64,000 bases of DNA from an uncultured Chloroflexia bacterium (GTDB lineage: Bacteria; Chloroflexota; Dehalococcoidia; GIF9; UBA5629). Under the pieces are notes generated by a model. That model did not search any database. It was not told the origin of the DNA and was given only the letters and a program-made list of their open reading frames with translations. Position 1 is the stretch's first letter, and every line of letters starts with the position of its first letter. The stretch lies in contig CAWGAF010000002.1 of assembly GCA_963820495.1 (NCBI GenBank), positions 121,913-185,912 on the forward strand, written 5' to 3'. Position numbers and translations under genes: made by a program. Positions 7,040 to 64,000 of the stretch are shown one piece after another.

Positions 7040-7057
7040 ATATAAATAGGAGGTACA

Positions 7058-8377: not shown

Positions 8378-8394
8378 CAGTACTAAGAGCCAGC

Positions 8395-8855: not shown

Positions 8856-8909
8856 CACATACACTCATATATGGCAGAATATATTTTACATTATTAGGGT
8901 AAGGTAACA

Positions 8910-13198: not shown

Positions 13199-13271
13199 TG
13201 GAGCTGATGGGATTCGAACCCACTACCTTCTGACTGCCAGTCAGACGCTCTCCCAATTGAGCTACAGCCCC
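13199..13271 (-). tRNA. tRNA-Ala (anticodon GGC)
   Basis: Minus-strand sequence GGGGCTGTAGCTCAATTGGGAGAGCGTCTGACTGGCAGTCAGAAGGTAGTGGGTTCGAATCCCATCAGCTCCA folds as a 73-nt cloverleaf. It has a G3:U70 identity pair, anticodon loop CTGGCAG and a TTCGAAT T-loop. No CCA is encoded. Confidence 0.93.
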
Positions 13272-13736: not shown

Positions 13737-14345
13737 TTAAACTCCTATTCCTGTCCAACGTAGTATAGACCCCAAACCATAATAGCCCAGGTAGGCGACT
13801 GCCATACCTTTTATGGTCTTGCCTGCCCAGCATAAAAAGAAGAACTTAGTCAGCCCGAAACGCATGGCACCGGCTATTGCTGTGAATGGGAAAAACAAGG
13901 GGTTGATAATAGATGACATGGCAAAAACGGCTATTGAACCACGGCGGCGTAGCCAATACTCGAATTTGGTGGTAAAGCGATGGTCAATTGTTTCCAATTT
14001 TGTTACTCCACTACGTCCGCCGTAACCAGTGAGATAAATAATTATGCTACCAATTGCTTCACCAAGTCCAGCTAAGGCTCCAACTATAGAGGGCTCTAGT
14101 ATACTACCCAGTGTAAAAACGACCAGCAGGCCAGGGACGGGGATAAGGATGGTTACCCCGGTAATGATACTGATAATAAGGACACCGAGGTAGCCATAGC
14201 GGCCTGCCCTTTGAATATAGTCCCAGTAAACGATGACTAAAGCGCATAAAGCCAGGACAAGCACCAGCCCTACGGCACTGATGAGGTACTCACGTTTTCT
14301 GGAACTACTTTTATTTTCCTCAGTTATCCCAGTTGGGTTTGCCAT
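13737..14345 (-). CDS. DedA/VTT-superfamily (YqaA-like) membrane protein
   Basis: 202 aa and polytopic. The ATG directly abuts the clpB stop (TAAATG). Sequence pattern: GVTILIPVPG...GEAIGSIIIYLTGYGG. Confidence 0.6.
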   Translation of the reverse strand: MANPTGITEENKSSSRKREYLISAVGLVLVLALCALVIVYWDYIQRAGRYGYLGVLIISIITGVTILIPVPGLLVVFTLGSILEPSIVGALAGLGEAIGSIIIYLTGYGGRSGVTKLETIDHRFTTKFEYWLRRRGSIAVFAMSSIINPLFFPFTAIAGAMRFGLTKFFFLCWAGKTIKGMAVAYLGYYGLGSILRWTGIGV

Positions 14346-16259
14346 TTATTTTGCAGCTCTTGCTTTTTTCTTGGTGCTAAAGCTTAATCCGCTGCCATCA
14401 ACGCTGCTGATGAAGATATGGCTGCCTTCTTTAAACTCACCACTGAGAATCTTGTTGGACAAGGGATTCTCTACATAGCGCTGGACAGCTCGGCGCAGTG
14501 GACGTGCTCCAAAGGCTGGTTCAAAACCTTCCTTGAGCAGCCAGGATTTTGCCTCATCATCCAGTTCCAGTACTATATTACGGTCTGCCAATCGTTTCTG
14601 CACTTCATTAATTAACAGGTCTACAATCTTCTTCAAATGTTCCTCAGTAAGAGGATGGAAGATGATGATATCGTCTATTCTGTTGAGAAACTCAGGGCGG
14701 AAGGTCCGTTTCAGAGCATTATCTATAGTCCCCTTCAACCTATCGTAGTCGCTCTTTTCCTGTTTTTCCTGGCGGGCAAAGCCTATTGCCTGTCGCTGGA
14801 ATTCCTCGGTACCCAGGTTGCTGGTCATTATTACGACGGTATTTCTGAAGTCAACTGTTCTGCCATGGCCGTCGGTTAACCTGCCATCCTCGAGTATTTG
14901 GAGCAGGATATTGAAAACATCAGGGTGCGCCTTCTCAATCTCGTCAAAAAGGATTACCCGGAACGGGCGCCGTCGCACGGCTTCGGTCAATTGTCCTGCT
15001 TCTTCATAGCCGATATATCCAGGCGGAGCGCCGACAAGGCGTGAAACCGTATGTTTTTCGCCGTACTCGGACATATCTATCCGAATTAGGGATTCCTCAT
15101 TATCGAACAGAAATTGAGCCAGTGCTTTAGCCAACTCCGTTTTGCCGACGCCGGTGGGGCCTAAAAAGATGAAGCTGCCCACAGGGCGTTTGGGGTCTTT
15201 GAGACCAGCTCTGCCACGTCTGATGGCTTCCGATATAACGGAGACAGCTTCTTCCTGGTTGACAATTCTGTCATGCAGTCTTTCCTCCATGTGAAGTAAT
15301 TTCTCAGCTTCACCCTCCAGCATGCGAGATACCGGGATACCGGTCCACTTGGCAACCAGCTCAGCGATGGTCTCCTGGTCTACGGGTTTATCGAATTTTT
15401 TCTCTTTACGCCACGCTGAATCTAACTGCTCATGCTCCGGTTCCAGGCGTAACCGCTGTGCCCTTATTTCGGCTGCTTTCTGATAGTCTCCCTGCTGAGC
15501 TGCTGATTCCTCTTCGTTTTGCAGTTGCTTTATCTGGATGTCCAGTTTTTTGATATTATCAGGTTTACTTTCCATGTCGATATGTATCTTGCTGGCTGCT
15601 TCGTCAATGAGGTCTATAGCTTTATCTGGCAGAAATCTATCCGAGATATAGCGCTGGCTCAGTTGAGCTGCAGCTACCAGTGCGGAATCATCTATCTTGA
15701 TTTTATGGTGAGCTTCATATCTGGGACGCAGAGCATGCAGCATTTCTATAGTCGCCTCAACGCTGGGCTCATTGATAAATATTGGCTGCAACCTTCGTTC
15801 TAATGCTTTATCCTTCTCAATATGCTCACGGTATTCATTTAGAGTGGTGGCTCCGATACATCTAAGCTCGCCACGTGCCAGCGCAGGCTTTAGCATATTG
15901 CTGGCATCAATGGCTCCCTCGGCAGCACCGGCACCAACGACAGTGTGCAACTCGTCGATGAATAAAACCACTTCTCCATTGGACTGGCGAACTTCATCTA
16001 TCACCGCCTTCAGCCGCTCTTCAAACTCGCCTCGAAATTTGCTGCCGGCAACCAGCGCTGCCATATCCAAGGCAATTACTCTTTTATTTTTTAGAGAATC
16101 AGGTACATCGCCAGCGGCGATTTTCTCAGCTAGACCTTCAGCAATGGCTGTTTTGCCTACGCCAGCCTCACCGATAATGACGGGGTTATTCTTGGTTCGG
16201 CGAATCAATATCTGCATTACTCGTTTTATTTCGTCATCACGCCCGATCACAGGGTCCAA
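14346..16259 (-). CDS. clpB: ClpB disaggregase, NBD1-middle domain-NBD2 fragment (downstream part of a frameshifted clpB)
   Basis: 637 aa: [13 protein letters not shown], Walker A GEAGVGKT and GPTGVGKT, a coiled-coil M domain, and GARPLRR. ClpB homology continues upstream of the track start in this frame ([23 protein letters not shown]). Confidence 0.9.
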
Positions 16260-45288: not shown

Positions 45289-46137
45289 TTAAATCTGATT
45301 CAGAAAAAGCTCGAACATTGACCTTTCATCAAAACGATGGTTATAACGGAATGCATACTCATTCAAATAAGATTGTAAGTATTTAGGTGAAACAGAATGA
45401 TAAACGCCATTGATACCACGTTTAATTTGAGACCAGAAACCCTCGATATTGTTGACGTGGGCTTTACCACGGACGTATTGCTTGGCTCTGTGATTGATTC
45501 TTTGATGATTAAATCCGATATAAGTAAGATGGTCGTAAGTAGGGAATTCATCAGTATAAATGATGGTATTCTTGGATATATTCCTGTTAATCATAGGGGT
45601 TATCGTAGACCGTTTAGCATCGGGGACAACGGAAGCCATGACTTTGCCTTTTCTTTGGACAAGGCCGACTACAACGGTTTTACCCTGTGCCCCACGACCA
45701 CGTGTGCCATGACGAGCACCGCCGACGTAGGTTTCGTCAATTTCAACTTCGCCAGTAAATATAGAGGATTCTTCACTAAGAAGTGTTCTAATCTGTTTAA
45801 ACATTCTCCAAGCAGTTTTATACGTAACGCCTGTCTCTCTTTGAATCTGTTTAGCAGAAATACCGCATCGAGTAGAAGCCATACGATGTATAACTTCAAA
45901 CCAAGTTCTAAGTGGAGTAGCGGACTTATGAAAAATTGTGCCAGCAGTCGGGTAAACTTGGTGATTGCAGTAATCGCAATTATAGCAATGGCGATTAGCA
46001 ATTTTATGATGTTTGGTTACTCGCTGGCAGTTCGGACAATAAATCCCGTCTGGATAGCGTTGATTCTTAATCCATTCAAGGCAAGTATCGTCATCTGGAA
46101 ACTTTGCGTCAAAATCATTTGTCGTAAACTTTTGCAT
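45289..46137 (-). CDS. IS1595-family DDE transposase with N-terminal zinc-ribbon
   Basis: 282 aa: CPNCQRVTKHHKI...YNCDYCNHQV ribbon, EIDETYVGG, IIYTDEFPTYD, VNNIEGFWSQIKR. Confidence 0.88.
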   Translation of the reverse strand: MQKFTTNDFDAKFPDDDTCLEWIKNQRYPDGIYCPNCQRVTKHHKIANRHCYNCDYCNHQVYPTAGTIFHKSATPLRTWFEVIHRMASTRCGISAKQIQRETGVTYKTAWRMFKQIRTLLSEESSIFTGEVEIDETYVGGARHGTRGRGAQGKTVVVGLVQRKGKVMASVVPDAKRSTITPMINRNISKNTIIYTDEFPTYDHLTYIGFNHQRINHRAKQYVRGKAHVNNIEGFWSQIKRGINGVYHSVSPKYLQSYLNEYAFRYNHRFDERSMFELFLNQI

Positions 46138-50920: not shown

Positions 50921-51860
50921 CGCAATGTTTCCGTAGAAATCCGACAGTCCATGTAAAATCATGGACATGCAAAACAGGACATTAATAACACTTTGCTGGG
51001 AGTTATATGAACAAGGAATTCCTAAGGTACACATTGCTAAAAGGCTGGATAAAAATCGCGAGACCATACATATCTGGATACAGAACATCAAAGAACATGG
51101 ACTTCTCTCATTCCTGGATAACTACGAGCAATCCAAGAAAGGTGAGAGGAAAAGAAGGCAAGTAGACCCGCTAGTAAAGAGATTAGTCTGGGAAATCAGG
51201 GAGCGCGAATACTATTGTTGTGGTCAGAAGATTCAATATTATTTAGAGCTTGAACGTGGTATCCACCTCTCGGTTCCTAAGATATATGAGATACTAGCGG
51301 AGAAATATTTAATTCGGTCCAAATGGAAGAAAAATAAAGTGAGAGGATTGATACCAAAAGCATCAATGCCCAGAGAAGTAATTCAGATGGATACAATTGA
51401 TTTCGGGGACATTTATGCATTCACTGCGATAGACATTTTTACCAGAGAGGCAGATATTCTATTAGCTCCGGAGCTCACTGCCAGGTACGGTTCCAGATTT
51501 CTAGTTAAGAGTATGAAGAGGAGATTTGGGCAGCATGTGCATCTTATTCAGACTGATGGCGGTCCAGAGTTTAAGGCAGACTTCCTCATGCATGTACATT
51601 CTTTCTGTGATCGTCACAGGGTAGCTAGGCCATATCGTAAAAATGAACAATCTTATATTGAGAGTTTCAACAGAACGGTAAGAAAAGAGTGCCTGGGCTG
51701 GTCAAAATATCGTGCTAAACAATTGCCTGAGTGCATAGAAATGGTAGAATCTTTCCTGAAGCGCTATCATTATCATCGTCCACATATGAGCTTAGGGATG
51801 AAGCCACCATTACAAAGATTAAAGAAGGAGGTAGACTGTCGGATATTTACGGAGAATTAA
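50921..51860 (+). mobile_element. IS481-family-like insertion sequence (~940 bp)
   Basis: Imperfect IRs: TTTCCGTAGAAATCCGACAGTC (50928-50949) versus GACTGTCGGATATTTACGGAGA (51834-51855). A direct repeat (AA)GCGAAGAA occurs at 50911-50920 and 51859-51868. The exact termini are uncertain. Confidence 0.65.
50961..51860 (+). CDS. IS481-family DDE transposase (HTH + rve integrase core)
   Basis: 299 aa: N-terminal HTH, DTIDFGD...IQTDGGPEF...NEQSYIESFNRTVRKE...YHYHRPHMSL. Confidence 0.85.
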   Translation: MDMQNRTLITLCWELYEQGIPKVHIAKRLDKNRETIHIWIQNIKEHGLLSFLDNYEQSKKGERKRRQVDPLVKRLVWEIREREYYCCGQKIQYYLELERGIHLSVPKIYEILAEKYLIRSKWKKNKVRGLIPKASMPREVIQMDTIDFGDIYAFTAIDIFTREADILLAPELTARYGSRFLVKSMKRRFGQHVHLIQTDGGPEFKADFLMHVHSFCDRHRVARPYRKNEQSYIESFNRTVRKECLGWSKYRAKQLPECIEMVESFLKRYHYHRPHMSLGMKPPLQRLKKEVDCRIFTEN

Positions 51861-51947: not shown

Positions 51948-54467
51948 ATGTCTGAACACGTCTTTATAAATTGTACCGTCGGAGGTCCTATTTCAGTATA
52001 TGTCAGAGGTGGAAAGATAGTTAGGGTGCGACCACTGGTAATTGATGAGAAGGATTTAAACCCATGGACAATTGATGCTAGAGGTAAAAAGTTCTCGCCG
52101 CCTAAGAAAATTACACTGGCACCTTATACAGTTACAGAGAGGCAAAAAGTTTACTCAGAAGACAGGATTAAATACCCATTAAAGAGGGTGGACTTTGATC
52201 CTGATAGCAAGAACAGGCTTACTGAAAACAGAGGTAAGTCAAATTATGAGCGAATAAGCTGGGACGAAGCGCTGGATATAATTGCTGGCGAGATTAAAAG
52301 AATAAGGAATAGCTATGGCCCAGAAGCTGTCACTGCCATAACTTCATCTCACCATAACTGGGGTTACGTAGGTTACAGGTTTGGGGCTTTCGAGAGGTTC
52401 TTTAATGTACTGGGACATACATTTATCTACCATAATCCGGATAGCTGGGAGGGTTTTCACTGGGGTGCTCCGCATGTCTACGGTTTTTACTGGAATTTAG
52501 GATGCCCTGAACAATCGGACCTTCTCACTGATACTTTAAAACATACCGACATGATAGTCTACTGGTCTAATGATCCTGATAGTACTCATGGAGGCTACTG
52601 TGGACAGGAGTCAGCAAGATGGCGGCTCTGGTTAAAGGAGTTGGGGATAAAGCAGGTTTTTATTGATCCGTTTTGCAACTATACTGCATCAATTCTGGGA
52701 GATAAGTGGATAGCTCCGAAGGTGGGTACCGATTCGGCAATGGCTCTGGCTATAGCATATGTCTGGCTTAAAGAAAATACGTACGACAAAGACTATTTGA
52801 CCAAGAGGACAATTGGATTTGAAGAGTTTAAGAAATATGTGTTAGGTAATAGCGACGGAGTGCCAAAGACCCCTGGATGGGCAGAGGAAATAACTGGGGT
52901 TCCCTCCAGAACTATGGTTGCCCTAGCCAGGGAATGGGCATCCAAGAGGACATCATTATCATGTGGGCTTCGTGGGGGTTGGGGTGGCGCTATGAGACTG
53001 GCATACGGGCATGAATGGGCAAGATTGATGATACTTTTGCAAGCTATGCAGGGTTGGGGCAAACCTGGTGTAAGTATGTGGGGAACTACCTCAGGGGGAC
53101 CTCATAATTCGAATTTCAAGTTTCCTGGATATTCTGATCCGGATGCCAGATTGTCAATGACGCGAGCAGCTAAAAAAATAATAAATAACCCAGTCGAACA
53201 GCGTCTCTACAGGATACTTTTCCCTGATGCCATTTTAAATCCCCCGATCCACTGGATAGGGGAAGGGTTCTGTGGGCAATCAATAGAGCAGCAGTTCAAG
53301 CCCTATACTTATCCCATGCCAGGTAAATCTGAAGTAAAGATGTTCTACCGTTATGGTGGTGCTTTTATTGGCACTATGACAGAGACGAATAAATGGGTAA
53401 AGGCATATCAAAGTCCCAAACTTGAATTTGTGGTTAATCAGGACTGCTGGTGGTGTACTGAAACGAGGTTTGCAGACATCATTCTGCCAGCATGCACCAA
53501 TCTGGAACGAAATGATATTTCGCAGTGGGCAGAGCCAGGCGGGTACTCTGCGGACTCTTCCAGCGGCTGTAACTTCAGGGTAATTGTGTACCAGCAGAAA
53601 TGTATCGAGCCATTGTATGAATCTAAACCTGATTATGAGATCTTTGCTTTGCTGGCAGAAAGACTGGGAATGAAAGGCGATTTTACCGAAGGTAAATCGG
53701 CAGAAGATTGGACAAAGGCAATATTTGACATAACCGACTTGCCCAAATATATATCGTTTGAAGATTTTAAAGAAAAGGGCTATTTTGTAGTCCCAGTTCC
53801 AGAGGACTATAAACCGACAGTAGCGCTTCGCTGGTTCTATGAAGGTAGAGCTTGTGATACACCTACTCATGGTAATCCCAAGAGGGGTACGACGAAAGCC
53901 CATGAATTAGCGTCATATAGCGGCAAGATAGAATTCGTATCAGAAAGCTTAAAGAAATATATGCCTGATGACGAAGAACGGCCACCAATGCCCAGATATA
54001 TACCTAGCTGGGAAGGGCCGACATCAGCGATTGCCAAGAAATATCCGTTGCAGCTTGTATCTCCACATGTTAGATATTCTTACCACACTCACTATGACAG
54101 ACGTAATGCCTGGATAAGTGATATTCCAGGGCACCGTATAATTAAAGATGGTTACTACTATCAGACTGTAAGAATTCATCCTGCTGATGCTGAGGCAAGA
54201 GGAATAAAGAATGGGGATGTAGTAAGACTTTATAACGATCGGGGTAGTGTACTGGGCGTGGCACAGGTTACTGAACGTATACGTCCAAGCGTTGTTCATA
54301 GTTATGAGTCTTGTGCTCAGTATGACCCGCTGGAACCAGGGAAAGTTGGGAGTACTGATAAAGCAGGATGCGTGAACTTACTCTCTCCTTCGAGGATGCT
54401 TTCCAAGAATGCGCCGGGTATGGCGAATAATTCCTGTCTCATAGAGATCGAGAAATGGGAAGGGTAA
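51948..54467 (+). CDS. molybdopterin oxidoreductase, pyrogallol-phloroglucinol transhydroxylase large-subunit-like (no adjacent beta subunit)
   Basis: 839 aa, DMSO-reductase-family layout, with no N-terminal Cys cluster and no twin-arginine signal. It aligns by eye along its C-terminal ~435 aa with the partial paralogue at 62666-64000. The N-terminus (INCTVGGPISVYVRGGKIVRVRP...) resembles the Pelobacter acidigallici enzyme as I recall it. Confidence 0.75.
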   Translation: MSEHVFINCTVGGPISVYVRGGKIVRVRPLVIDEKDLNPWTIDARGKKFSPPKKITLAPYTVTERQKVYSEDRIKYPLKRVDFDPDSKNRLTENRGKSNYERISWDEALDIIAGEIKRIRNSYGPEAVTAITSSHHNWGYVGYRFGAFERFFNVLGHTFIYHNPDSWEGFHWGAPHVYGFYWNLGCPEQSDLLTDTLKHTDMIVYWSNDPDSTHGGYCGQESARWRLWLKELGIKQVFIDPFCNYTASILGDKWIAPKVGTDSAMALAIAYVWLKENTYDKDYLTKRTIGFEEFKKYVLGNSDGVPKTPGWAEEITGVPSRTMVALAREWASKRTSLSCGLRGGWGGAMRLAYGHEWARLMILLQAMQGWGKPGVSMWGTTSGGPHNSNFKFPGYSDPDARLSMTRAAKKIINNPVEQRLYRILFPDAILNPPIHWIGEGFCGQSIEQQFKPYTYPMPGKSEVKMFYRYGGAFIGTMTETNKWVKAYQSPKLEFVVNQDCWWCTETRFADIILPACTNLERNDISQWAEPGGYSADSSSGCNFRVIVYQQKCIEPLYESKPDYEIFALLAERLGMKGDFTEGKSAEDWTKAIFDITDLPKYISFEDFKEKGYFVVPVPEDYKPTVALRWFYEGRACDTPTHGNPKRGTTKAHELASYSGKIEFVSESLKKYMPDDEERPPMPRYIPSWEGPTSAIAKKYPLQLVSPHVRYSYHTHYDRRNAWISDIPGHRIIKDGYYYQTVRIHPADAEARGIKNGDVVRLYNDRGSVLGVAQVTERIRPSVVHSYESCAQYDPLEPGKVGSTDKAGCVNLLSPSRMLSKNAPGMANNSCLIEIEKWEG

Positions 54468-54549
54468 ATCACTAGCGAATGTAGTGTCTGTTGAATAAGA
54501 TTAAATGATATGGGATACTAAGTATAAACGATTTTAAGGAGGTTGAGTA

Positions 54550-55341
54550 ATGAGATTTGTCGATCCTCACCTGCATACGGACATGATAGACGATGTTATT
54601 TTGGAAAAACTTTCCATGGCTGGCATGGAGGCAGCGATCGTTCCTTCGCCACATATGTTGAAAGGTTCGGGGACGGCTGACACAATATTCCGCCTGTGGC
54701 GTAGGTTTCTCGACTTCGAAGTGAATAGTGCTAAGTCCATGGGTTTTGAACTTTTTGTTTCTTTAAGCATTCCATTCTATGGATTAGATGCTAAGAACAT
54801 TGAGGAATGTCTTAAAGAACTGCCTAATTACCTTAAACATGATAGGGTTGTGGCTATTGGAGAAATTGGTCTAGACTGTGGTATTGAAGATGAAAAGGAT
54901 CTCTTTAAAGCGCAATTGAAAATAGCCAAAGAGCATAACCTGCCGATAATAGTACATTCTGCTATTAGATTGGCTCCACAGGCTTCTACAGTTATAAAGC
55001 AAATAGTAGACGTGATCAACGAGGAAAAGTTTCCTATTGAACGAGTGGTTTTAGACCATACTGGTGAAAGCTCTTTTGACTATCGGATAAAAACTGGAGC
55101 TATGGTTGGATTGAGTGTATGTCATGATAAAATGCCGCCTGAAATAGCTGCCGATTATGTGATAAAGAATCCAGGTAAAAGAGATAAGTTAATAATAAAT
55201 TGTGAACTTGCGGGCGGAGATTTCTACTTTACGGTGCCAAGAGTAATTATGGCTATGAGAATGATGGGCTTAAGCCATGATGAGATAGAAAACGTTGTCT
55301 GGGAAAACCCTAGGAAGTTTTTTAAGCTGCCACTGAAATAA
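54550..55341 (+). CDS. TatD-related metal-dependent hydrolase
   Basis: 263 aa: FVDPHLHTD N-terminus, AIGEIGLD, IIVHS, LDH motifs. Confidence 0.7.
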   Translation: MRFVDPHLHTDMIDDVILEKLSMAGMEAAIVPSPHMLKGSGTADTIFRLWRRFLDFEVNSAKSMGFELFVSLSIPFYGLDAKNIEECLKELPNYLKHDRVVAIGEIGLDCGIEDEKDLFKAQLKIAKEHNLPIIVHSAIRLAPQASTVIKQIVDVINEEKFPIERVVLDHTGESSFDYRIKTGAMVGLSVCHDKMPPEIAADYVIKNPGKRDKLIINCELAGGDFYFTVPRVIMAMRMMGLSHDEIENVVWENPRKFFKLPLK

Positions 55342-55433
55342 GATTTTAGTGAGATTGGTTAGTTAGGTAATTGAGTTTGGTATAAAAGATAGAGTTGCAG
55401 GCTGTAAGCCTGCAACTCTTTTTATTAATTAGA

Positions 55434-56699
55434 CTATTTCTTGTATTTACTACTTCTCTTTTTCTCTAGTTCAGCGAGGTAAACTTTCCAGGGTTTCTCG
55501 TCCTCGGCCATTCTGTCACGGAATTCTGGTCCCACTTCCGTATGGTCTTTCCTGTCGAGTATTACCCACAGCGGGAAAGGCTCAGCTGGAGGACAGCCAC
55601 CGGAAAACGGACTACCTTGGCCTCGGTGTTTCTTAAGGCAGTCGCCCACAAGTATAACATCTTTGCCAAGTTTCAATCCCTTAGGAAGCTCCTTCTTGCG
55701 ACCGACGACGATAGAAATACCCTTATTCTTTTCGTACTCGCCCATTGCCTTTAGCCTTTCCATAGTAAGTGCCAATAATCCCTGACAACTACTGCAGCTA
55801 CCTTCCGCATAAAATTTGTATTCTGGCCATGTATTGAATCCCTTGAGATAAGGTAACCATAGTTTCTTATATACTTCCTTTATAGATTTGCCTCGGACCT
55901 CGATGAATTTTTCTTCGTAGTGTCCCAGTCCACGTTCACGGGCTGGTTCAAAGTAGGCGACTTTCTTAATGTCTAGCCCAATCATACGGCAAATGGTAGC
56001 ATCTACTGCTACAGGATCCTTCCCGGCTACAACGCAGCCAAAGTCAACCGGCGTGGTACTGTGAGGGCCAAAACCCTCCGCAGGACGAATCATGTCTACT
56101 ATGTTAAGGTCTGCCTTGATGACAGACCAGACGTCCATCATAGCTGCTGCCAGATCAGTCTGGTGCATCTGGTAATGGACCTTATCCTGCACTACCCCTT
56201 TAATGTTTTTGAGTGCGCAGGTAAATACCATGCTGGCATGCGATTTGAAGATAGGTATGTTAACTATGTGATCTGCTTCTAGAAGAAATCTGGGTAACAG
56301 TACGCTGGTTATAGCGGACCTGGCATCCCGAATAGGAATCTTTATCAGGTCTTTTTCCCGTTTAATATCGATAATTTTATCTATACCTGCTTCCTTGGCA
56401 GCTTTACCGATACCAGTTACCTCGAGGGCTTCTAGGGTGTCGCAACCAATAGCTGCTGCCTCAGCCAGGATAATCTCCTTTGGCTGGGCTTTACGTAATA
56501 TTTTAATAACCGCGGTTACAAAAGCGGGGCTGGTGTTGGCGCTGGTCTCAGGAGGAATAGGGTGCCCCGAGTTGGGTTTGATGACTACTGTCGAATTCGG
56601 CTTGATTAGATTATCAATCCCGCCTAAAAGAGACAGTGCCTCCTCTATCATTTTCTCCGGGTTAGTTCCCTTGACTATGGAAACGACTGATTTAGCCAT
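55434..56699 (-). CDS. DUF362 domain protein
   Basis: 421 aa: NSTVVIKPN motif near the N-terminus, Cys-containing C-terminal extension (CSSCQG, CLKKH). Confidence 0.7.
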   Translation of the reverse strand: MAKSVVSIVKGTNPEKMIEEALSLLGGIDNLIKPNSTVVIKPNSGHPIPPETSANTSPAFVTAVIKILRKAQPKEIILAEAAAIGCDTLEALEVTGIGKAAKEAGIDKIIDIKREKDLIKIPIRDARSAITSVLLPRFLLEADHIVNIPIFKSHASMVFTCALKNIKGVVQDKVHYQMHQTDLAAAMMDVWSVIKADLNIVDMIRPAEGFGPHSTTPVDFGCVVAGKDPVAVDATICRMIGLDIKKVAYFEPARERGLGHYEEKFIEVRGKSIKEVYKKLWLPYLKGFNTWPEYKFYAEGSCSSCQGLLALTMERLKAMGEYEKNKGISIVVGRKKELPKGLKLGKDVILVGDCLKKHRGQGSPFSGGCPPAEPFPLWVILDRKDHTEVGPEFRDRMAEDEKPWKVYLAELEKKRSSKYKK

Positions 56700-57051
56700 A
56701 CTAACATCCCCTCCTTTAATCCCTATTGAGCATATTGCCTAGAGGTAAATTATTATAGCACATGCAGAATTACCTTTAAATTATAAAAGAAGTTCAGTAT
56801 TATTTGTTTAAATATTGTTTGTAAATAGGTTTATGCCTATGAAATAAATTACAAATGTAATTTGTTTTGAAGATTGCACCAGATATGTTGACACCCAACT
56901 GAAAGATTGCTTATTATTATTCACATATATCGATAATACACCTGTTTAGGCACACTGAAGCTGTATGAAGTAGAGATATTTGAGGGATAAGGATGTGTGT
57001 GGTAAACCAGAGTGTTAGTCGAGAGATATAGCAGGCATAAAAGGAGGAGAA

Positions 57052-57528
57052 ATGCTAAAGAAAATATTAGTTCCCCTTGACGGCTCCAAACTGGCGGAGT
57101 GTGCTTTACCGTATGTAGAGGAGCTGGCAGCAAAACATGTAGCTGAGGAGGTTGTCTTAATCAGTGTCACAGAGCGTATTCAGGGATTTAGACCTATAGA
57201 GGATTTGGGCTCGCCAACTGAAGAGCGTCTAGCGCCCGAGGCTGTAGGCAAAATGGAAAGACAAGCGATGAAATATCTTGATAGGATAGCCAAAAGTTTA
57301 GAGGGCAAGGGTATTAAAGTGACCAAAGAAGTGCCCTTGGGGAATCCTGCAGAAGAAATTATCATCTATGCAGAGATTAAAGGTTGTGATCTTATTGCGA
57401 TGGCAAGCCATGGGCGTGGTGGCCCCAGCAGGTGGGTGCATGGTAGTGTGGCAGATAGAATCCTCAAGGCTGTCCACGTACCAGTCATGATCATACGGGC
57501 ACCTGGCTGTGCTGCAATTGGTAAATGA
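57052..57528 (+). CDS. universal stress protein (UspA family)
   Basis: 158 aa: KILVPLDGS, DLIAMASHGRGG...GSVADRIL. Confidence 0.85.
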   Translation: MLKKILVPLDGSKLAECALPYVEELAAKHVAEEVVLISVTERIQGFRPIEDLGSPTEERLAPEAVGKMERQAMKYLDRIAKSLEGKGIKVTKEVPLGNPAEEIIIYAEIKGCDLIAMASHGRGGPSRWVHGSVADRILKAVHVPVMIIRAPGCAAIGK

Positions 57529-57558
57529 GCCGCCAGAGAAACGTAATAAAATATTACT

Positions 57559-57620
57559 TAAGAACTACCACCATAGCTGAAGTTGTGACGTGCTGCTTGC
57601 AGCTATGGTGGTAGTTCTTA
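57559..57620. terminator. perfect 21-bp inverted repeat between convergent genes (bidirectional terminator-like hairpin)
   Basis: TAAGAACTACCACCATAGCTG (57559-57579) pairs with CAGCTATGGTGGTAGTTCTTA (57600-57620) across a 20-nt loop. An A/T-rich tract lies on the left side only. Confidence 0.55.
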
Positions 57621-57676
57621 GTGAATTAGCCTGCTAGCAAAAAGGAAAGGCGATTTTCTTCGATCCAGAGTTGTAT

Positions 57677-58609
57677 TTAGTAATTAACCTTGTCCTTCCC
57701 TTTTAAGCCCAGTATCTTTCTGGCTTCGTCGGGAGTAGCTATTTCTCGGCCAAGCTCTCTGGCGATTCTTACCACTTTTTCTACCAGTTGTGCATTAGTG
57801 CCGAGCTTACCCTTTTCAATAAAGATATTATCTTCCAGACCTACCCTGGCGTGCCCCCCCATCATTATCGATAGTGTTGCCAGATTAAATTCTGCTGGGT
57901 AGCCGGCACCGATTACCGACCACTTGTAGTTTTCTGCACCGAACAGTCTATCGGCAGTATGCTTCATGTACATAACATCTTCTATAGTGGAACCGATTCC
58001 ACCTAAAATTCCAGTAACAAATTGTATCCACAGTGGAGGCTTGAGGATATTTTTCCTCAGCAGGAAGTTAATATTGTAAAGATGACCGACATCGTACGCC
58101 TCGTGTTCCGGCTTAGTGTCATTTTCCTTCATGGTTTGGCAAAAGTGTTCAATATCAGCGAAAGTATTTCTGAAGATGAACTCTTTGGTGCTTTCGGCAA
58201 ATTGTTTTTCCCACGGGTACTTGTACTCCTCGTCCTTATATCGATCGACTATGGGATGGATTGAAAAATTAATCGACCCCATATTGAATGTGGCGAGTTC
58301 AGGCTTAAGTGCAGGGACCACTTTTACTCTATCCGCTGCAGTCATATCAGCAGTACCACCAGTAGTCACGCAGACTATCACATTGCTGCGTGCCTTTATG
58401 CCAGCGGCAATTTCCTTGTATACGGCTGGATCGGTCGTTGGCTTGGCAGTCTTGGGGTCCCTGCCGTGAATATGTACTGAGGCTGCCCCAGCGTTAGCTG
58501 CTCTTACAGCATCGTCGATAATCTCTTGAGGTGTTAGAGGTAGGTGAGATGTCTGTGTTGGGAGGGTTATATTGCCAGTTAGGGCACAAGTTACAATTAG
58601 TTTTTCCAT
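57677..58609 (-). CDS. BKACE-family (DUF849) beta-keto acid cleavage enzyme; candidate triacetate acetoacetate-lyase
   Basis: 310 aa: LIVTCALTGN...LPLTPQEIIDDAVRAANAGAASVHIHGRD, typical BKACE N-terminus. Confidence 0.75.
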   Translation of the reverse strand: MEKLIVTCALTGNITLPTQTSHLPLTPQEIIDDAVRAANAGAASVHIHGRDPKTAKPTTDPAVYKEIAAGIKARSNVIVCVTTGGTADMTAADRVKVVPALKPELATFNMGSINFSIHPIVDRYKDEEYKYPWEKQFAESTKEFIFRNTFADIEHFCQTMKENDTKPEHEAYDVGHLYNINFLLRKNILKPPLWIQFVTGILGGIGSTIEDVMYMKHTADRLFGAENYKWSVIGAGYPAEFNLATLSIMMGGHARVGLEDNIFIEKGKLGTNAQLVEKVVRIARELGREIATPDEARKILGLKGKDKVNY

Positions 58610-58693
58610 TTATAGTTTATGAGTCCTCCTTTATTGTACTCTATATTAATTATAAGTTATGTTGTAGTTAGAGTTAAATTTTTATTAAGCCAC

Positions 58694-59641
58694 CTAGCTT
58701 CGTTGCTTTCGAGAGTAATCTATAAGGTACTTTAAAAGATTTTCTCTAGTACGCTTGATAATTTCCGGTGTCCAGTTATCATAGAAGCCTTTCCCCGATT
58801 TAAACCCAAGCTCTCCTTTCTTTACTTTTTCTTTTAAAAGGGGTGATGGGTTGGGAGAAGCCTCTAAATGCTTTAAAACAGTGTTGTGTATAGCTAATGT
58901 CAGATCCAGCCCAGCCATATCAGCGTTCTCAAGCGGCCCTAGAACTGCTACTCTGATACCGAAACTCTGCTTGATGGCAGCGTCAACAGTGGCGGCATCA
59001 GCGATGCCATTTTCCACGATTGAGATTGCCTCTCGCCACAGGGCGTGCTGAAGACGGTTGGCGACAAAACCTGGCACATCCTTCAAACACTTGATGGGAT
59101 ATTTGCCAGCTTTTTTCATAAATTGATAGGTTATTTCCATAGTATCATCAGAGGTATCTTTCCCCTTTACTACTTCAACCAGAGGAATGAGATACGGTGG
59201 GTACCAGAAATGTGTTCCCACGATTCTGTTTCTATTCTTAGCTTTAGAAGCTATCTCAGTTATGCTAATTACAGATGTATTGGTTGCCAGAATCTTTTCG
59301 GGAGGGGATATCTTGTCTAGCTCTTGAAACGTATCCTGCTTTATTTTGAGGTCCTCGGCTATAGATTCGATAACGATGGGGGCATTGGCCACTGCTTCAG
59401 CCATGTCTCTGGTAGTTTTTATCTTGCCTACAATTTTTGCTATTTCCTCATCTTTGCCGGCTTGGTCTGCTAGCAAAGGGGCTAGCTCTCCTTTGACGCC
59501 TTCAATAGCTTTGTCCAGGGTCTGCTGTGTTCTGGAAAAGAGTGTGACCTGATAACCGGACTTGGCGAAGTGCAACGCCAATCCGTGTCCTATCATACCT
59601 GCGCCTAGTAAAGCAATACTACGAACCTCTTCAGCCTTCAT
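58694..59641 (-). CDS. 3-hydroxyacyl-CoA dehydrogenase-family NAD(P) oxidoreductase; candidate 3-hydroxy-5-oxohexanoate dehydrogenase
   Basis: 315 aa: IALLGAGMIGHG Rossmann motif, PGFVANRLQ, 3HCDH C-terminal domain pattern. Confidence 0.75.
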   Translation of the reverse strand: MKAEEVRSIALLGAGMIGHGLALHFAKSGYQVTLFSRTQQTLDKAIEGVKGELAPLLADQAGKDEEIAKIVGKIKTTRDMAEAVANAPIVIESIAEDLKIKQDTFQELDKISPPEKILATNTSVISITEIASKAKNRNRIVGTHFWYPPYLIPLVEVVKGKDTSDDTMEITYQFMKKAGKYPIKCLKDVPGFVANRLQHALWREAISIVENGIADAATVDAAIKQSFGIRVAVLGPLENADMAGLDLTLAIHNTVLKHLEASPNPSPLLKEKVKKGELGFKSGKGFYDNWTPEIIKRTRENLLKYLIDYSRKQRS

Positions 59642-59728
59642 TGGGATAACTCCTTATATAACAGAAATGATACTAGATTGAGTATATATTTGTATTTATT
59701 TATCGAAGCACGAAGATGGGATTCTAGC

Positions 59729-60067
59729 TTAGTAGTTCACACATACCAGCATGGTTACTATCTTGTTAGTCTTGTTTATAATTTCTCTTCCCTCAAATGG
59801 AGCTATATACAGGGAGTCCATGGGTCCAAGAGTGAACTCTTCTGTTTTAGATTTAATGGTGATTTCTCCATCTAGGACAATATACACTTTCTCTGTGGGT
59901 GAATCTTCATAGGCCCATTCAGAACCACCAGCAGGGAGGAAATATGAAAGCCCCATCCAGAATTTCTGGATACCTGTTTCATCCTTGCCTTGTAGTCTTA
60001 GAGTGGATACATTAAAATGCTTTGGTGCTGCATAGGGTTTAACATCACTAAGTCGAACCTTTTTCAT
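59729..60067 (-). CDS. cupin-domain protein
   Basis: 112 aa, small beta-barrel pattern (VYIVLDGEITI...GPMDSLYIAP). Confidence 0.65.
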   Translation of the reverse strand: MKKVRLSDVKPYAAPKHFNVSTLRLQGKDETGIQKFWMGLSYFLPAGGSEWAYEDSPTEKVYIVLDGEITIKSKTEEFTLGPMDSLYIAPFEGREIINKTNKIVTMLVCVNY

Positions 60068-60136
60068 ATTTCCTCCCTAATGAATTTTCTATCGTTATTT
60101 ATTTTTAGAGTGGCTTTAATTTAAGTTCAAGTTGAT

Positions 60137-60898
60137 TTACTGATCACCAGAATCAACGATGGCGACTAATCTGACCATTGAGCCATCCCCTTTGACCCAC
60201 CGGATTGGAAATCCAGCTAAAGTAACTCTCTTACCTACTACTTTGTCAATGTCGCCGCCGACATTTTCGTAACCCATGATGCCATTTTTCAAAATGATGT
60301 TGTGGCAGGGTTCCCATAGCGGAAAATCGTCTATTACTTTGCGTCCGGTCTCTTTTTCATACTCAGCACATACGTCCGGCCGCAATGGACCTAATCCGTG
60401 AGGACCTATCGCGGTAGCCAGCGGATGGTCAAGAGCCTGCTGGTCAACGCCGACACATTTCACACCCTTCTGTACGAACCAATCACCAGCTTCTTTGTAA
60501 AGACCAGGTGAGTAGCAAAAATACTTTGTGTTATCTCCATAATATATATGCCAGTGAGTGTGTACGATGACTATATCCCCCTTTTCAATCTTGGGTTTGG
60601 CTTTTTCTAAGTCGTCTGGGGTGATTACGCCCCATTTGTTTTTGGGAATGTCGACGACAACTCCAGTGCCATAGTACTTTTCCAAGGGGATTTCGTCGGT
60701 GTACATGCCTCCCTCGAAGACATGAGCTGGGGAATCAGCGTGTGTTGCACAATGCATAGTAGTGGTGATTTTTTGAGTTAGTACTCCAGCCTTGGCGTGG
60801 TAATGTATTCTCTCAATTTGGACATCCGAAAAATAGGGCCATAGTGGCACACCAAAACCCCAAGGATGACTTAAATCTACAAGTTGCACTTTTCCCAT
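60137..60898 (-). CDS. putative-cyclase-family metal hydrolase; candidate dihydrophloroglucinol cyclohydrolase
   Basis: 253 aa: HCATHADSPAHV matches the HxGTHxDxPxH cyclase/formamidase motif. Confidence 0.75.
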   Translation of the reverse strand: MGKVQLVDLSHPWGFGVPLWPYFSDVQIERIHYHAKAGVLTQKITTTMHCATHADSPAHVFEGGMYTDEIPLEKYYGTGVVVDIPKNKWGVITPDDLEKAKPKIEKGDIVIVHTHWHIYYGDNTKYFCYSPGLYKEAGDWFVQKGVKCVGVDQQALDHPLATAIGPHGLGPLRPDVCAEYEKETGRKVIDDFPLWEPCHNIILKNGIMGYENVGGDIDKVVGKRVTLAGFPIRWVKGDGSMVRLVAIVDSGDQ

Positions 60899-61045
60899 AG
60901 CAGGATACCTCCTTTAATGTTGTTACTTAGTTCTTGAATAACTCGGGCTCAAGCTTTGAGCTACTCCGGTACCTGTGTAAATAATATTTTCCTATTTCTT
61001 TTCTTTGCCTCCTTCCCGAAAGAAATCATCATTCGATGGTTTTTA

Positions 61046-61810
61046 CTACCAGGTAGTTACACCGCCATCAACATACACTACCTGACCAGTAACAAAATCG
61101 GAAGCTTTTGAAGCCAAGAAAATTGTAGGCCCAATAATATCTTCGGGCATTGCCCAGCGACCGAGCGGAATGCGGGCTTTCATTCTTTTGGCGTACTCTG
61201 GGTCGGCAAGTGCAGGGCGGGTAAGTTCAGTTTCTACGACAGTAGGCGCTACTGCATTCACGAGTACATTGTGTTTAGCCCACTCGCAGGCTAATGTTCG
61301 TGTCAGAGTATCTACAGCTCCTTTACTGGGGCAGTATGCTGCGTAGTCCACAGGAAGGCCGTACCGGCCTCTTACTGAGGATACATTCACTATCTTGCCG
61401 TTTTTTTGTTTAATCATTACACGTCCCACTGCCTGGCAGCAGACAAAGGTACCACGAGCATTGATATCCATTACCTGTTGCCACTCGTCAATAGGAAAAG
61501 TTTCAGCAGGATGGCGAATGGCGATACCGGCAGCGTTCACCAGAATATCAATGCGTGGGAATTCTTTCAGTACACGTGCTACCATATCCTCTACTGATTT
61601 CACCTGAGTAACATCTGTGGAGGTGGCTAGGGCTTTTCTTCCTTTGGATTTTATATCCTTGGCTGTTTCTTCCAGATGTCCAAGTTTGCGGCTGGTTACT
61701 ACAACATCAGCACCTGCATCAGCAAGCCCCAGAGCTAGAGCACGTCCAATACCACCAGCACCACCAGTTACGATGGCAACTTTGCCTGTCAAATTAAATA
61801 AATCGCTCAA
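61046..61810 (-). CDS. short-chain dehydrogenase/reductase; candidate phloroglucinol reductase
   Basis: 254 aa: TGGAGGIGRA, NAAG, S...YCPSK catalytic triad pattern. Confidence 0.8.
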   Translation of the reverse strand: MSDLFNLTGKVAIVTGGAGGIGRALALGLADAGADVVVTSRKLGHLEETAKDIKSKGRKALATSTDVTQVKSVEDMVARVLKEFPRIDILVNAAGIAIRHPAETFPIDEWQQVMDINARGTFVCCQAVGRVMIKQKNGKIVNVSSVRGRYGLPVDYAAYCPSKGAVDTLTRTLACEWAKHNVLVNAVAPTVVETELTRPALADPEYAKRMKARIPLGRWAMPEDIIGPTIFLASKASDFVTGQVVYVDGGVTTW

Positions 61811-61835
61811 GTTATCCTCCTTTTCAAGACGTTAT

Positions 61836-62663
61836 TTACGCTTTGCTTAGATTGATTGCCCCCAGATAATTGTCAGTTTTCAAGTCAACGTCGATTGTCT
61901 TTGCTGTGTAGCCTTTGCATTCAATCTTTACGGAGTATTTTCCAGCAGCCAGACTATCAAACATGAAGTCACCGAAAGTGTTGGCCGTAGCCTTGGTTGA
62001 TTTGCCGTTTGAGGTTAGGGTTACCGAAGCTCCTTCAGCGCACTCGTTCTTGTCACCATAAGCTACCGATCCAGCGATGAAAATTTTGGGCACATTCATA
62101 TAAAGGACTCTTGGATTTGTTTTATATTGAGGGTAGAGGGGTTCTGTCTTCCCTGAAGCTACGAGTTTGGCTACCTCGCTCTTAGGATCATCAAGGTCAC
62201 CAAATTTAAGAGCCTCGCTGGGGCAGGAAAGTACGCATCTGGGTATCTTTCCTTCCTCAAGCCTGTGAATGCAGAGAGTGCACTTTTGAGGTAGCTTCTT
62301 CTCTTCGTTCCAGAATATTACTTTGTAAGGGCAGGCATCTACTATTTGCTTTTGACCGACGGCTTTCTTGGGGTCTATAATCACTATCCCATCAGGTCTT
62401 TTAGTTACAGCACCATCTTTGGCAACTTTCATGCATGGGGCATCGTCACAGTGCACACAAAGGGCGGGCACATAAGCTACCTTTATACAGGGGTAGGTGC
62501 CACGCTCGCGCTTAATGGGGTTGATCCAGAATTGGTCGAACCTGGGCTGAGCTGCAGAATAGGGAGGATAATTGTTCTCCCAGTACTCATCTTTACAGGC
62601 AGCAAAGCAGCAATAGCATGCAGTGCATCTTGATACGTCTATCACCATACCATATTTAGCCAT
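61836..62663 (-). CDS. transhydroxylase small (beta) subunit-like: 4Fe-4S ferredoxin domains + C-terminal beta-sandwich
   Basis: Preferred start is MAKYGMVIDVSRC (ATG 62663, GGAGGG 7 nt upstream), giving 275 aa. CTACYCCFAAC plus further Cys groups. The C-terminus (GKYSVKIECKGYTAKTIDVDL) is carboxypeptidase-regulatory-like. Confidence 0.8.
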   Translation of the reverse strand: MAKYGMVIDVSRCTACYCCFAACKDEYWENNYPPYSAAQPRFDQFWINPIKRERGTYPCIKVAYVPALCVHCDDAPCMKVAKDGAVTKRPDGIVIIDPKKAVGQKQIVDACPYKVIFWNEEKKLPQKCTLCIHRLEEGKIPRCVLSCPSEALKFGDLDDPKSEVAKLVASGKTEPLYPQYKTNPRVLYMNVPKIFIAGSVAYGDKNECAEGASVTLTSNGKSTKATANTFGDFMFDSLAAGKYSVKIECKGYTAKTIDVDLKTDNYLGAINLSKA

Positions 62664-62665
62664 TT

Positions 62666-64000
62666 TTATGCCCTCCATTTCTCAATTTCAATTAAGCAGG
62701 AGCCTGGAGCCATACCACAGGCATTCTTGGATATGAAGCGGTGTGGTGTCAGCAAATTGATGCATCCACCTTTGTCTGGAGATTCTCCCGGTTCACCAAT
62801 AGGCTCGTAGATAGCGCAGGATTCCCAGGCGTGAGCTACACCAGGTGGAACTCGGTTAGTAACCTGGGCACTTAAGAGCACAGCCCCTCTATCATTGAAA
62901 GCTTTGACAATGTCGCCTTCTTTAATACCTCTCTTTTCCGCATCCTTGGGGCTGATACGGAGTACCCAGTAGTAATGGCCATCTGGTGCTTTCACTCTGT
63001 GCTCTGGCACTTCATTCATCCAGCTCTCCTTGCCGTCATACATTGTGTGGAAGCTATACCTGGGATGTGGTGTGATTATCTGGATAGGATACTTGGAGTA
63101 TAGCTCTGTGGTGCGGTGACCTTCCCAGGAAGGAATATATTTAGCCACCGGTGGGCGCTCTGGGTCGTTGGGGTCAAACCTCTTGAGACTGGTTGCTTCA
63201 AACTCAATCTTGCCAGTTTGGGTAGCCAATCCTGACTCATCAGGTAGGCTCATTATGCCGCCACCAGCTGGACCCCAGTCAGGTGTATCCTTTCGTCTAC
63301 CTTCGGCAAACCATCTCAGTGCTGGAGTGGGTTTGTAATTCTTGGGTATCGGAACCACAAAGTAACCTTTCTTTTCGAAATCTTCCCAGGATATATATTT
63401 GGGCAGGTCTGTTGACTTGTAGTATTGCTTACACCAATCGTAGAGTGTTTTGCCGCCGTCGGTGAACTTCTCATAGAAGCCAAGCCTCTTTGCGACTAAG
63501 GCAAAGATGTCATAGTCTGCCATTGATTCGCCCAGAGGCTCAATGCATTTCTTCTGCAGGACGATAGTGCGGCGGTTAGTTCCAGAGGAAGAGTGAGGAA
63601 TATAGCCTGAGCAATTACCCCATTCGCCGATATCCCATCTCTCGAAGTTAGAGCAGGCAGGCAATATGATGTCGGCAAATTTAGCTTCACCTTCCATGTA
63701 GATGGACTGGTTGACCACGAAATCCAGGTTAGGACTCTGGTACATCTTGACCCAGCGGTTGGTATTGGTCATAGTGCCAATATAGGCGCCGCCATATCTC
63801 CAGAACATCTTTCCCGTAGAGAATCCATCTTCAGGATACTTGTATTTCTTGAATTGCATTTCGGTTGAGTTACCGCAGAAACCCTTGCCTCGCCACTCAA
63901 TAGGCGGGTTCATGATAGCTTCAGGAAGAAGTAACCTGGGTATATGCTGTCCCAGGGGGTTGTTCACCATTGAGGCTACGGTGTGCAGCGTAATGCCGCG
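62666..64000 (-). CDS. pyrogallol-phloroglucinol transhydroxylase large (alpha) subunit-like Mo enzyme, C-terminal 444 aa; gene continues beyond window end
   Basis: The frame stays open to 64000 (RGITLHTVASMVNNPLG...), so the track Met at 63970 is internal. It is paralogous to 51948-54467 and ends ...CLIEIEKWRA. Confidence 0.85.
   Translation of the reverse strand, partial: RGITLHTVASMVNNPLGQHIPRLLLPEAIMNPPIEWRGKGFCGNSTEMQFKKYKYPEDGFSTGKMFWRYGGAYIGTMTNTNRWVKMYQSPNLDFVVNQSIYMEGEAKFADIILPACSNFERWDIGEWGNCSGYIPHSSSGTNRRTIVLQKKCIEPLGESMADYDIFALVAKRLGFYEKFTDGGKTLYDWCKQYYKSTDLPKYISWEDFEKKGYFVVPIPKNYKPTPALRWFAEGRRKDTPDWGPAGGGIMSLPDESGLATQTGKIEFEATSLKRFDPNDPERPPVAKYIPSWEGHRTTELYSKYPIQIITPHPRYSFHTMYDGKESWMNEVPEHRVKAPDGHYYWVLRISPKDAEKRGIKEGDIVKAFNDRGAVLLSAQVTNRVPPGVAHAWESCAIYEPIGEPGESPDKGGCINLLTPHRFISKNACGMAPGSCLIEIEKWRA

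Follow-up and report, generated by a model that had tools for sequence, protein, structure and literature searches.

The question raised by this locus is whether an uncultured anaerobe of the Chloroflexota carries, side by side, the genes that would convert pyrogallol to phloroglucinol and those that would then reduce and open the phloroglucinol ring. The window (the whole stretch of 64,000 nucleotides that was analysed, from contig CAWGAF010000002.1 of an uncultured Chloroflexia bacterium) contains such a candidate gene set at its end, at positions 57677–64000, and a first-pass annotation, made by eye, had described it as a complete operon for the degradation of pyrogallol through phloroglucinol to acetoacetate and acetyl-CoA. 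We favour an interpretation where these genes form a catabolic operon for trihydroxybenzenes in a Chloroflexota (Dehalococcoidia-like) anaerobe, and put the probability of this at roughly 0.75. The region holds seven intact, tightly spaced genes, all on the minus strand, listed here from the large subunit (alpha) of the putative transhydroxylase to the last gene; SDR stands for short-chain dehydrogenase/reductase, and Mo-bisMGD for molybdenum-bis(molybdopterin guanine dinucleotide).

62666–64000, minus strand: alpha, AthL-like large (Mo-bisMGD) subunit, C-terminal 443 residues (Pfam Molybdopterin and Molydop_binding)
61836–62663, minus strand: beta, BthL-like small Fe-S subunit, 275 aa (Pfam Fer4_11 and CarboxypepD_reg)
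61046–61810, minus strand: SDR, candidate NADPH-dependent phloroglucinol reductase (PGR), 254 aa (Pfam adh_short; adh_short_C2 1e-64)
60137–60898, minus strand: cyclase-family hydrolase, candidate Mn-dependent dihydrophloroglucinol cyclohydrolase (DPGC), short 253-aa type (PF04199 1.9e-35)
59729–60067, minus strand: cupin, 112 aa (Pfam Cupin_2)
58694–59641, minus strand: 3-hydroxyacyl-CoA-dehydrogenase (3HCDH)-family enzyme, candidate (S)-3-hydroxy-5-oxohexanoate dehydrogenase (triacetate-forming dehydrogenase, TfD), 315 aa (3HCDH_N 6e-57, 3HCDH 1e-22)
57677–58609, minus strand: BKACE, long 310-aa type, candidate triacetate (3,5-dioxohexanoate) acetoacetate-lyase (TAL) (PF05853 2.6e-102)

The coordinates and strand of these close-packed genes, as first annotated, were reproduced from the open reading frames, and Pfam agreed with the family call for each of the seven. 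The intergenic gaps from alpha to BKACE are 2, 25, 147, 69, 87 and 84 nt, a Shine-Dalgarno-like GGAGG or GGAG lies 5' of every gene that starts inside the window, and the genes are full length relative to their homologs in related loci. The reading frame of alpha, which ends with a stop at 62666, is open up to 63997 at the window edge, so alpha is cut by the window and not by a mutation. The claim that beta is coupled to alpha through a Shine-Dalgarno sequence also stands, as the ATG of beta (62663) follows the alpha stop by 2 nt and is preceded by GGAGG; were beta to start instead at the other ATG, at 62678, it would overlap alpha. The SDR gene starts with TTG.

From homology and synteny we infer the following order of steps and their chemistry. 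The alpha/beta pair would act as a cytoplasmic Mo-bisMGD/Fe-S enzyme that isomerises pyrogallol to phloroglucinol, with 1,2,3,5-tetrahydroxybenzene as co-substrate and no net redox change. The SDR would use NADPH to reduce phloroglucinol to dihydrophloroglucinol, the ring of which would be opened by the cyclase in a metal-dependent retro-Claisen hydrolysis giving (S)-3-hydroxy-5-oxohexanoate. The 3HCDH-family dehydrogenase would oxidise this product to 3,5-dioxohexanoate (triacetate), so returning a reducing equivalent, and the BKACE would move the terminal unit onto acetyl-CoA, yielding acetoacetyl-CoA and acetoacetate. Thiolase and CoA-transferase steps would then be encoded elsewhere, and the phloroglucinol module would include the cupin as its conserved fifth member, without a placed step. 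Gallate decarboxylase, tannase, thiolase, CoA-transferase, regulators and transporters were also looked for in the rest of the window, and none was found. As the window has no thiolase or CoA-transferase, the encoded route stops at acetoacetate and acetoacetyl-CoA, and the description of the operon as complete overstates what it encodes.

The best solved relatives of alpha and beta, by a wide margin, are the subunits AthL and BthL of the Pelobacter acidigallici transhydroxylase, an enzyme of the DMSO-reductase superfamily (PDB 4V4C–4V4E; EC 1.97.1.2), in agreement with the first-pass assignment. Alpha matched the large subunit (4v4c_A, aligned to residues 436–867) with a phmmer E-value of 1.2e-170, the next solved relative being TMAO reductase at only 6e-33. 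In its visible part alpha shares 55.8% identity with AthL, retains the Tyr560 context NCSGYIP, and is 89.6% identical, over the shared half, to a full-length ortholog in a Chloroflexota metagenome-assembled genome (MAG), locus L006. Beta matched 4v4c_B with an E-value of 1.7e-62 (45.3% identity), keeps 13 of the 13 BthL cysteines that make up the [4Fe-4S] set, and ends, as BthL does, in an Ig-like domain (CarboxypepD_reg).

The L006 ortholog (5685–8258) has 857 aa, is 57.8% identical to AthL and carries no twin-arginine leader. It conserves His144, Arg153, Asp174, Ser175, Tyr404 and Tyr560 of AthL, where Ser175 is the Mo ligand and His144, Asp174 and Tyr404 are substrate or catalytic residues. 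The window itself contains a second full-length large subunit, 8 kb from the first, with no small subunit adjacent to it.

51948–54467, plus strand: alpha2, AthL-like large subunit, 839 aa (phmmer to 4v4c_A 4e-279; PF21423, AhtL-like first domain)

Alpha2 has all six of these residues and Trp354 as well. The likeness to the P. acidigallici enzyme thus comprises the two-subunit architecture, homology over the full length, the AhtL-like first domain of the window paralog and the L006 ortholog, the missing Tat leader, and Ser175, His144, Asp174, Tyr404 and Tyr560 in both of these proteins. The window differs in its moderate identity (56% for alpha, 45% for beta), in the orphan second alpha nearby, and in that its alpha/beta genes are joined to genes of the downstream pathway. 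The gene context in P. acidigallici could not be compared; its genome was stated to be unavailable in a 2023 study (PMC10470551).

That study (Zhou et al., mBio 2023) characterised the phloroglucinol pathway of Clostridium scatologenes, with CsPGR, CsDPGC, CsTfD and CsTAL as its enzymes, and is the main point of reference for the five genes that follow beta. The window cyclase is about 46% identical to CsDPGC, a sequence that, like that of CsTfD, was obtained by machine reading of the paper's supplement and is slightly noisy, and 24% identical to isatin hydrolase (5NNB). It carries Trp20 and Tyr22, numbered as in CsDPGC, and the H/H/D/H/E metal ligands are all conserved. Trp20 and Tyr22 replace the isatin-binding Ile and Leu, and were used to separate DPGC from isatin hydrolase (PMC10470551), so that the signature expected of a DPGC, as first proposed for this hydrolase, is present. 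Kynurenine formamidase (arylformamidase) was considered for the cyclase and rejected, as the score for that family was 57 bits against a cutoff of 223. A search with the CsDPGC sequence recovered only relatives of 79–85% identity and not the C. scatologenes locus itself, and the primers given in the paper had no match in any retrieved locus.

The 3HCDH-family enzyme is about 50% identical to CsTfD, as against 37% to the clostridial (S)-3-hydroxybutyryl-CoA dehydrogenase (HBD) of the butyryl-CoA pathway (4KUH), and it carries the TfD-type NRLQHALWREAISIVENGIADA segment. In place of the region around the CoA-contacting Asn221 of HBD it has the 3-residue insertion that CsTfD also has, and the CoA-binding Lys56 is changed to Ala, while the catalytic Ser, His and Asn are retained (NTS, THFW and ANRL). 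A role as the HBD of the butyryl-CoA pathway was rejected because of this difference in identity and the loss of the CoA-binding residues; the TfD signature agrees with the dehydrogenase originally proposed.

For the BKACE, the best NCBIfam model was NF053538, "3,5-dioxohexanoate:acetyl-CoA acetone transferase" (408.9 bits, E 1e-122), followed by Kce with a score about 150 bits lower (260 bits). The protein keeps the Zn ligands His46 and His48 and the Glu of VGLEDN, and has Ile14 at the position of the Glu that binds the amino group in Kce; the lysine-fermentation Kce was rejected on these grounds (260 vs 409 bits, no Glu14). Ile is also found at this position in 3LOT, to which the window protein is 57% identical, and in BKACE15 of Paracoccus denitrificans (8RIO; 46% identical). 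3LOT, which we take to be from Archaeoglobus fulgidus, is uncharacterised and is of the same long BKACE subtype as the window protein, as is BKACE15 (8RIO/8RIP/9HNF). For BKACE15, 3,5-dioxohexanoate is an experimentally confirmed substrate and the gene context was noted as aromatic degradation; it differs in being promiscuous, accepting several beta-keto acids, and in that its physiological role was stated as unknown. The BKACE enzyme of the earlier proposal can thus be placed in a subfamily that cleaves 3,5-dioxohexanoate, and not with the clostridial TAL type.

The SDR is the weakest link of the module, and its candidacy as PGR rests on shared motifs and strict synteny. Stand-ins were used in the comparisons with CsPGR and CsTAL, namely the Firmicute loci L003 and L005 and PDB 5G4K, which was recognised as the crystallised PGR by a PDB search with the SDR of a Firmicute cluster. 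The window SDR is 33.7% identical to 5G4K and 40% identical to the Firmicute SDR. The catalytic Ser, Tyr and Lys are present, and three motifs are common to the window SDR and 5G4K: SS-x-R-G after the catalytic Ser, Y..YC.SK, and PT(V/I) in place of PG. This motif set, which was derived in the present analysis and is not a published definition, occurs in all of about 30 aligned SDRs adjacent to a cyclase, from six or more phyla; three SDRs encoded in the same loci and not adjoining the cyclase lack the motifs and have the usual PG instead. After strand 2 the window protein has TSRK where known PGRs have TGR(S/N), so that Thr and Arg are kept and the third residue is Lys, and similar motifs are found in many NADP-dependent SDRs. 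The proposal that the SDR is a PGR stands as regards family, the three shared motifs and synteny, and fails in that a PGR is not its closest characterised relative. When the enzymes were checked for best matches in unrelated clades, the result mostly failed to refute the first-pass assignments.

A scan of species-representative genomes for the cyclase gave 38 loci, and linkage was counted in 23 non-redundant loci, namely those where the cyclase gene has 5 kb or more of flanking sequence on either side. Of these 23, 22 have an SDR linked to the cyclase, 19 the cupin, 19 the 3HCDH enzyme and 18 the BKACE; an AthL-like gene lies within 10 kb of the module in 7/23 and a DUF362 gene is linked in 3/23. 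The module of SDR, cyclase, cupin, 3HCDH and BKACE spans at least six phyla. The closest cyclase loci (92% identical) come from Chloroflexota and Dehalococcoidaceae MAGs, as expected from the earlier description of the genome as Chloroflexota-like. Positions 52164–64000 of the window are collinear with the L006 contig (JBBIPA010000005.1) at 74–79% nucleotide identity, and this collinearity takes in alpha2, a TatD-like gene, a DUF362 gene and a USP gene. Because of the collinearity with L006 and the recurrence in the 23 loci, the gene arrangement is not due to chance. A transhydroxylase and the module are also juxtaposed in MAGs of Anaerolineales, Desulfatiglandales, "Deltaproteobacteria" and Proteobacteria. 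Some loci (L037, L040) have only the cyclase and the SDR.

Several observations weigh against the reading as a trihydroxybenzene operon, and each is taken up here with the alternative on which it bears. The first group concerns the transhydroxylase. The catalytic N-terminal half of the cluster alpha lies beyond position 64000 and was checked in the L006 ortholog instead, where a 2-residue deletion (GGLG--GAACRA) removes Trp354, a residue present in AthL and most of its relatives. Identity to the characterised subunits is moderate (AthL 56%, BthL 45%), and closer AthL relatives, 65% identical, occur in other MAGs. Given these closer relatives and the alpha2 paralog, the exact phenol handled may be pyrogallol, hydroxyhydroquinone or another. 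It is accordingly conceivable, though in our view unlikely, that the module degrades phloroglucinol while alpha/beta is a related hydroxyl-transferring or hydroxylating Mo enzyme that feeds it from another substrate, such as hydroxyhydroquinone (in the manner of Pelobacter massiliensis), the substrate of a reaction like that of resorcinol hydroxylase, or a phenol that is substituted or oligomeric. The multiple copies of the family in Chloroflexi, with two paralogs in this window alone, would fit such a role, as would the arrangement in L016 (14579–17110) and L041 (14829–17357), from Desulfobacterota-type MAGs, where a single phloroglucinol module lies between two different alpha/beta pairs. 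In one of these pairs Arg153 is changed to Trp and Trp354 to Phe, which hints that the transhydroxylase family includes a second substrate specificity. Set against this alternative are the conservation of His144, Arg153, Asp174, Ser175, Tyr404 and Tyr560 in both the L006 ortholog and alpha2, and the coupling to a phloroglucinol module, which is what would be expected of an enzyme that forms phloroglucinol.

The second group concerns the module, a variant known from sequence whose identity to the characterised enzymes is again moderate (PGR 34%, DPGC 46%, TfD 50%, and 36% to the TAL stand-ins, which are Firmicute-type homologs). 5G4K is absent from the 60 best PDB matches of the SDR, which are gluconate-5-dehydrogenase/KduD-type enzymes. 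The BKACE falls below the equivalog cutoff of NF053538 (408.9 vs 430 bits), carries a 25-residue insertion relative to the Firmicute type, and has Ile in place of Trp16, a residue highlighted in CsTAL. The cyclase has 253 aa where CsDPGC has 312, three insertions with a total of about 55 residues being absent. These differences, an identity of only 34–50% for all four enzymes, the range of beta-keto acids taken by BKACE15, and the loci with cyclase and SDR alone would also be compatible with a module whose substrate is a different cyclic 1,3-dione or resembles a polyketide (for instance a phloroglucinol with substituents, a dione derived from resorcinol, or a carboxylated analogue), with the cyclase and BKACE having paralogous functions that only resemble DPGC and TAL. 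We regard this as improbable, as Trp20/Tyr22, specific to DPGC, and the signature specific to TfD are both kept, this subfamily of BKACE has 3,5-dioxohexanoate as a confirmed substrate, and the hydroxylated C6 product of dihydrophloroglucinol is suited to a 3-hydroxy acid dehydrogenase with a beta-keto-acid lyase acting after it. The neighbouring transhydroxylase, moreover, would itself yield phloroglucinol.

The last group concerns the unity of the locus. Transcription as a single operon is something we infer from spacing only, and promoter and terminator scans within the cluster gave results no better than in shuffled sequence. The window also contains insertion sequence (IS) elements in the vicinity, so that the catabolic region adjoins mobile DNA.

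50961–51860, plus strand: rve-integrase IS, directly upstream of alpha2
45289–46137, minus strand: IS1595-family transposase, about 6 kb further on from the rve IS

With the 147-nt gap between SDR and cyclase, and an AthL-like gene near the module in only 7 of the 23 loci, this leaves some room for the idea that alpha/beta and the module are independently regulated neighbours, joined by rearrangement, and not one unit. We consider this very improbable: the genes share one strand, have short gaps and, inside the window, each its own Shine-Dalgarno sequence; L006 keeps the same order at about 76% nucleotide identity; and separate pairings of alpha/beta with the module exist in the Desulfatiglandales, "Deltaproteobacteria", Anaerolineales and Proteobacteria MAGs. 

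The cupin had been described as an extra gene in this operon, a view that we abandon. It is a regular, conserved member of the module that adjoins the cyclase across phyla as often as the 3HCDH enzyme and about as often as the BKACE, and no other protein is as well conserved (63% identity) between the two types of cluster, that of the Firmicutes and that of the Chloroflexota. In the Firmicute-type clusters its gene lies just upstream of PGR. In C. scatologenes the corresponding gene is CSCA_1081, encoding a 113-aa Cupin_2 protein listed in the proteomics table directly before CsPGR (CSCA_1082) and CsDPGC (CSCA_1083), and three of its peptides were detected by mass spectrometry in gel bands of phloroglucinol-grown cells (PMC10470551). 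The text of that paper nowhere mentions CSCA_1081 and assigns it no function.

Members of this cupin family lack the His-x-His metal motif; the invariant residues are His17, Trp37, Glu59, Lys60, Tyr62, Glu92, Arg94, Asn98 and Asn101. A PDB sequence search with the cupin found no solved relative. An AlphaFold2 (AF2) model was of moderate quality (pLDDT 72.5), and with Foldseek it matched generic small cupins only, the best being the Mn-cupin TM1459, so that no function follows from the fold. The cupin also matched NCBIfam NF050094, the Rv1717 model, with an E-value of 2.6e-23 and a score of 82 bits, which is below the cutoff of 175. Rv1717 is presumably located inside a mycobacterial cluster (Rv1714–Rv1718). 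It is a cupin of 116 aa from Mycobacterium tuberculosis, of the same size as the window protein, that was published as a cell-wall beta-galactosidase (PMC7873859), an activity with no obvious link to phloroglucinol catabolism; a DPGC cluster of M. tuberculosis is listed in the 2023 study (PMC10470551).

The four-enzyme reconstitution of the C. scatologenes pathway works without the cupin (PMC10470551), so that the core chemistry can proceed in vitro in its absence. At about 1 s-1, CsDPGC was the slowest enzyme (PMC10470551), and it is a reasonable hypothesis that the cupin would act on dihydrophloroglucinol conversion as a helper or tautomerase. We tentatively suggest, at somewhat less than even odds, that the cupin is an unrecognised fifth pathway component at this step, for example as a keto-enol tautomerase, as a helper of the cyclohydrolase or in Mn delivery. 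If this is true, its mycobacterial homolog Rv1717 would be mis-assigned as a beta-galactosidase.

How does the locus relate to what has been described before? It shares with the C. scatologenes cluster the same four enzyme families and the same inferred chemistry, as well as Trp20/Tyr22 and the metal ligands of DPGC, the TfD signature, the Zn ligands of the BKACE, and a homologous cupin encoded beside PGR. It differs in gene order, in the attached transhydroxylase, and in that the visible cluster has no CoA-transferase, thiolase, transporter or regulator. By sequence comparison the window enzymes are a divergent short-cyclase/long-BKACE variant, with cyclase, SDR and 3HCDH enzyme 34–50% identical to the characterised set (PGR via 5G4K). 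The 2023 list of co-located four-gene clusters already includes DPGC homologs from Chloroflexi and Dehalococcoidia, one of them of 253 aa (PMC10470551). AthL/BthL-like genes in multiple copies, and a predicted use of pyrogallol, were reported for the Chloroflexi RBG-2, RBG-1351 and DEH-C11 (Hug et al. 2013, PMC3971608; Wasmund et al. 2016, PMC4959651), and the present locus has the phylum, the enzyme family, the multiple copies and the pyrogallol prediction in common with them. These papers predate the ring-cleavage genes, and their passages on the transhydroxylase genes describe no contiguous transhydroxylase-plus-phloroglucinol operon. The four phloroglucinol-pathway genes are now routinely annotated by CAMPER, and PgthAB, the transhydroxylase, is annotated together with PGR in a preprint of 2026. 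We came across no account in the literature of a transhydroxylase and this pathway in one contiguous operon. As the pathway is already known from strict anaerobes, this contiguity is an organisational detail and not new biology, and no new chemistry is revealed by the operon.

In anoxic soils and sediments, trihydroxybenzenes from tannins and flavonoids make up a large phenolic carbon pool, and Chloroflexota, most of them uncultured, abound there. By joining a putative Mo transhydroxylase to a full ring-reduction and ring-cleavage module, the operon offers a testable genetic basis for the pyrogallol fermentation predicted in 2013. The putative variant of the pathway with short cyclase and long BKACE is the form found in these lineages, and one BKACE of the long type has been assayed in vitro. 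There is also a gain for annotation, in that motifs are available for a divergent PGR clade, and the cupin can serve as a marker gene and as a candidate for a missing function.

A substrate uptake system may lie next to the cluster. A transporter of the Liv-type ABC family (Peripla_BP_6, two ATPases and two permeases) adjoins the operon in L006 (756–5584), where it precedes alpha, and in L002 (5679–10683). It could plausibly serve to take up the phenolic substrate, and a similar transporter is probably located just past the end of the window.

Between the IS elements and the operon, alpha2 is followed by two further genes, an arrangement that is repeated in L006.

54550–55341, plus strand: TatD-like (TatD/PTE-like) metal hydrolase, following alpha2
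55434–56699, minus strand: DUF362 protein, 421 aa, with a C-terminal four-Cys region (PF04015 3.4e-48)

The pair of alpha2 and TatD-like genes converges on the DUF362 gene at a strong bidirectional hairpin terminator (55391–55419), and a promoter-like divergent region separates the DUF362 gene from the USP gene. DUF362 homologs (63–91% identical) are found beside the cyclase in L001, L002, L006, L011 and L012, the order in L011 being DUF362-cyclase-alpha-beta. The family belongs to the Pfam clan of the N-terminal domain of LarA, the nickel-pincer racemase. A PDB sequence search with the DUF362 protein gave no match, and a single-sequence AF2 model was unusable (pLDDT 35). We regard the DUF362 gene as a separate transcription unit, and its link to the pathway as uncertain. 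In L006 a Schlafen-like helicase gene (14026–15723), which the window does not have, is placed between the USP gene and the DUF362 gene. An archaeal-type flagellin (PF01917) is encoded near the cluster in L001 (431–1042).

At the start of the window (2377–8377), genes for a PP2C phosphatase, a Ser/Thr kinase and three successive FHA-domain proteins make up a signalling cluster. This is followed by a low-GC island at 8000–13000 (0.32–0.37, as against about 0.45 elsewhere) that holds genes for GmrSD-type restriction endonucleases (8910–10610 and 10603–12810) and is probably an acquired defence island. It adjoins the single tRNA that was detected in the window with Rfam (13199–13271). The rest of the window encodes housekeeping functions, including DnaK/DnaJ, PolA, EngA, GltX, SHMT and others.

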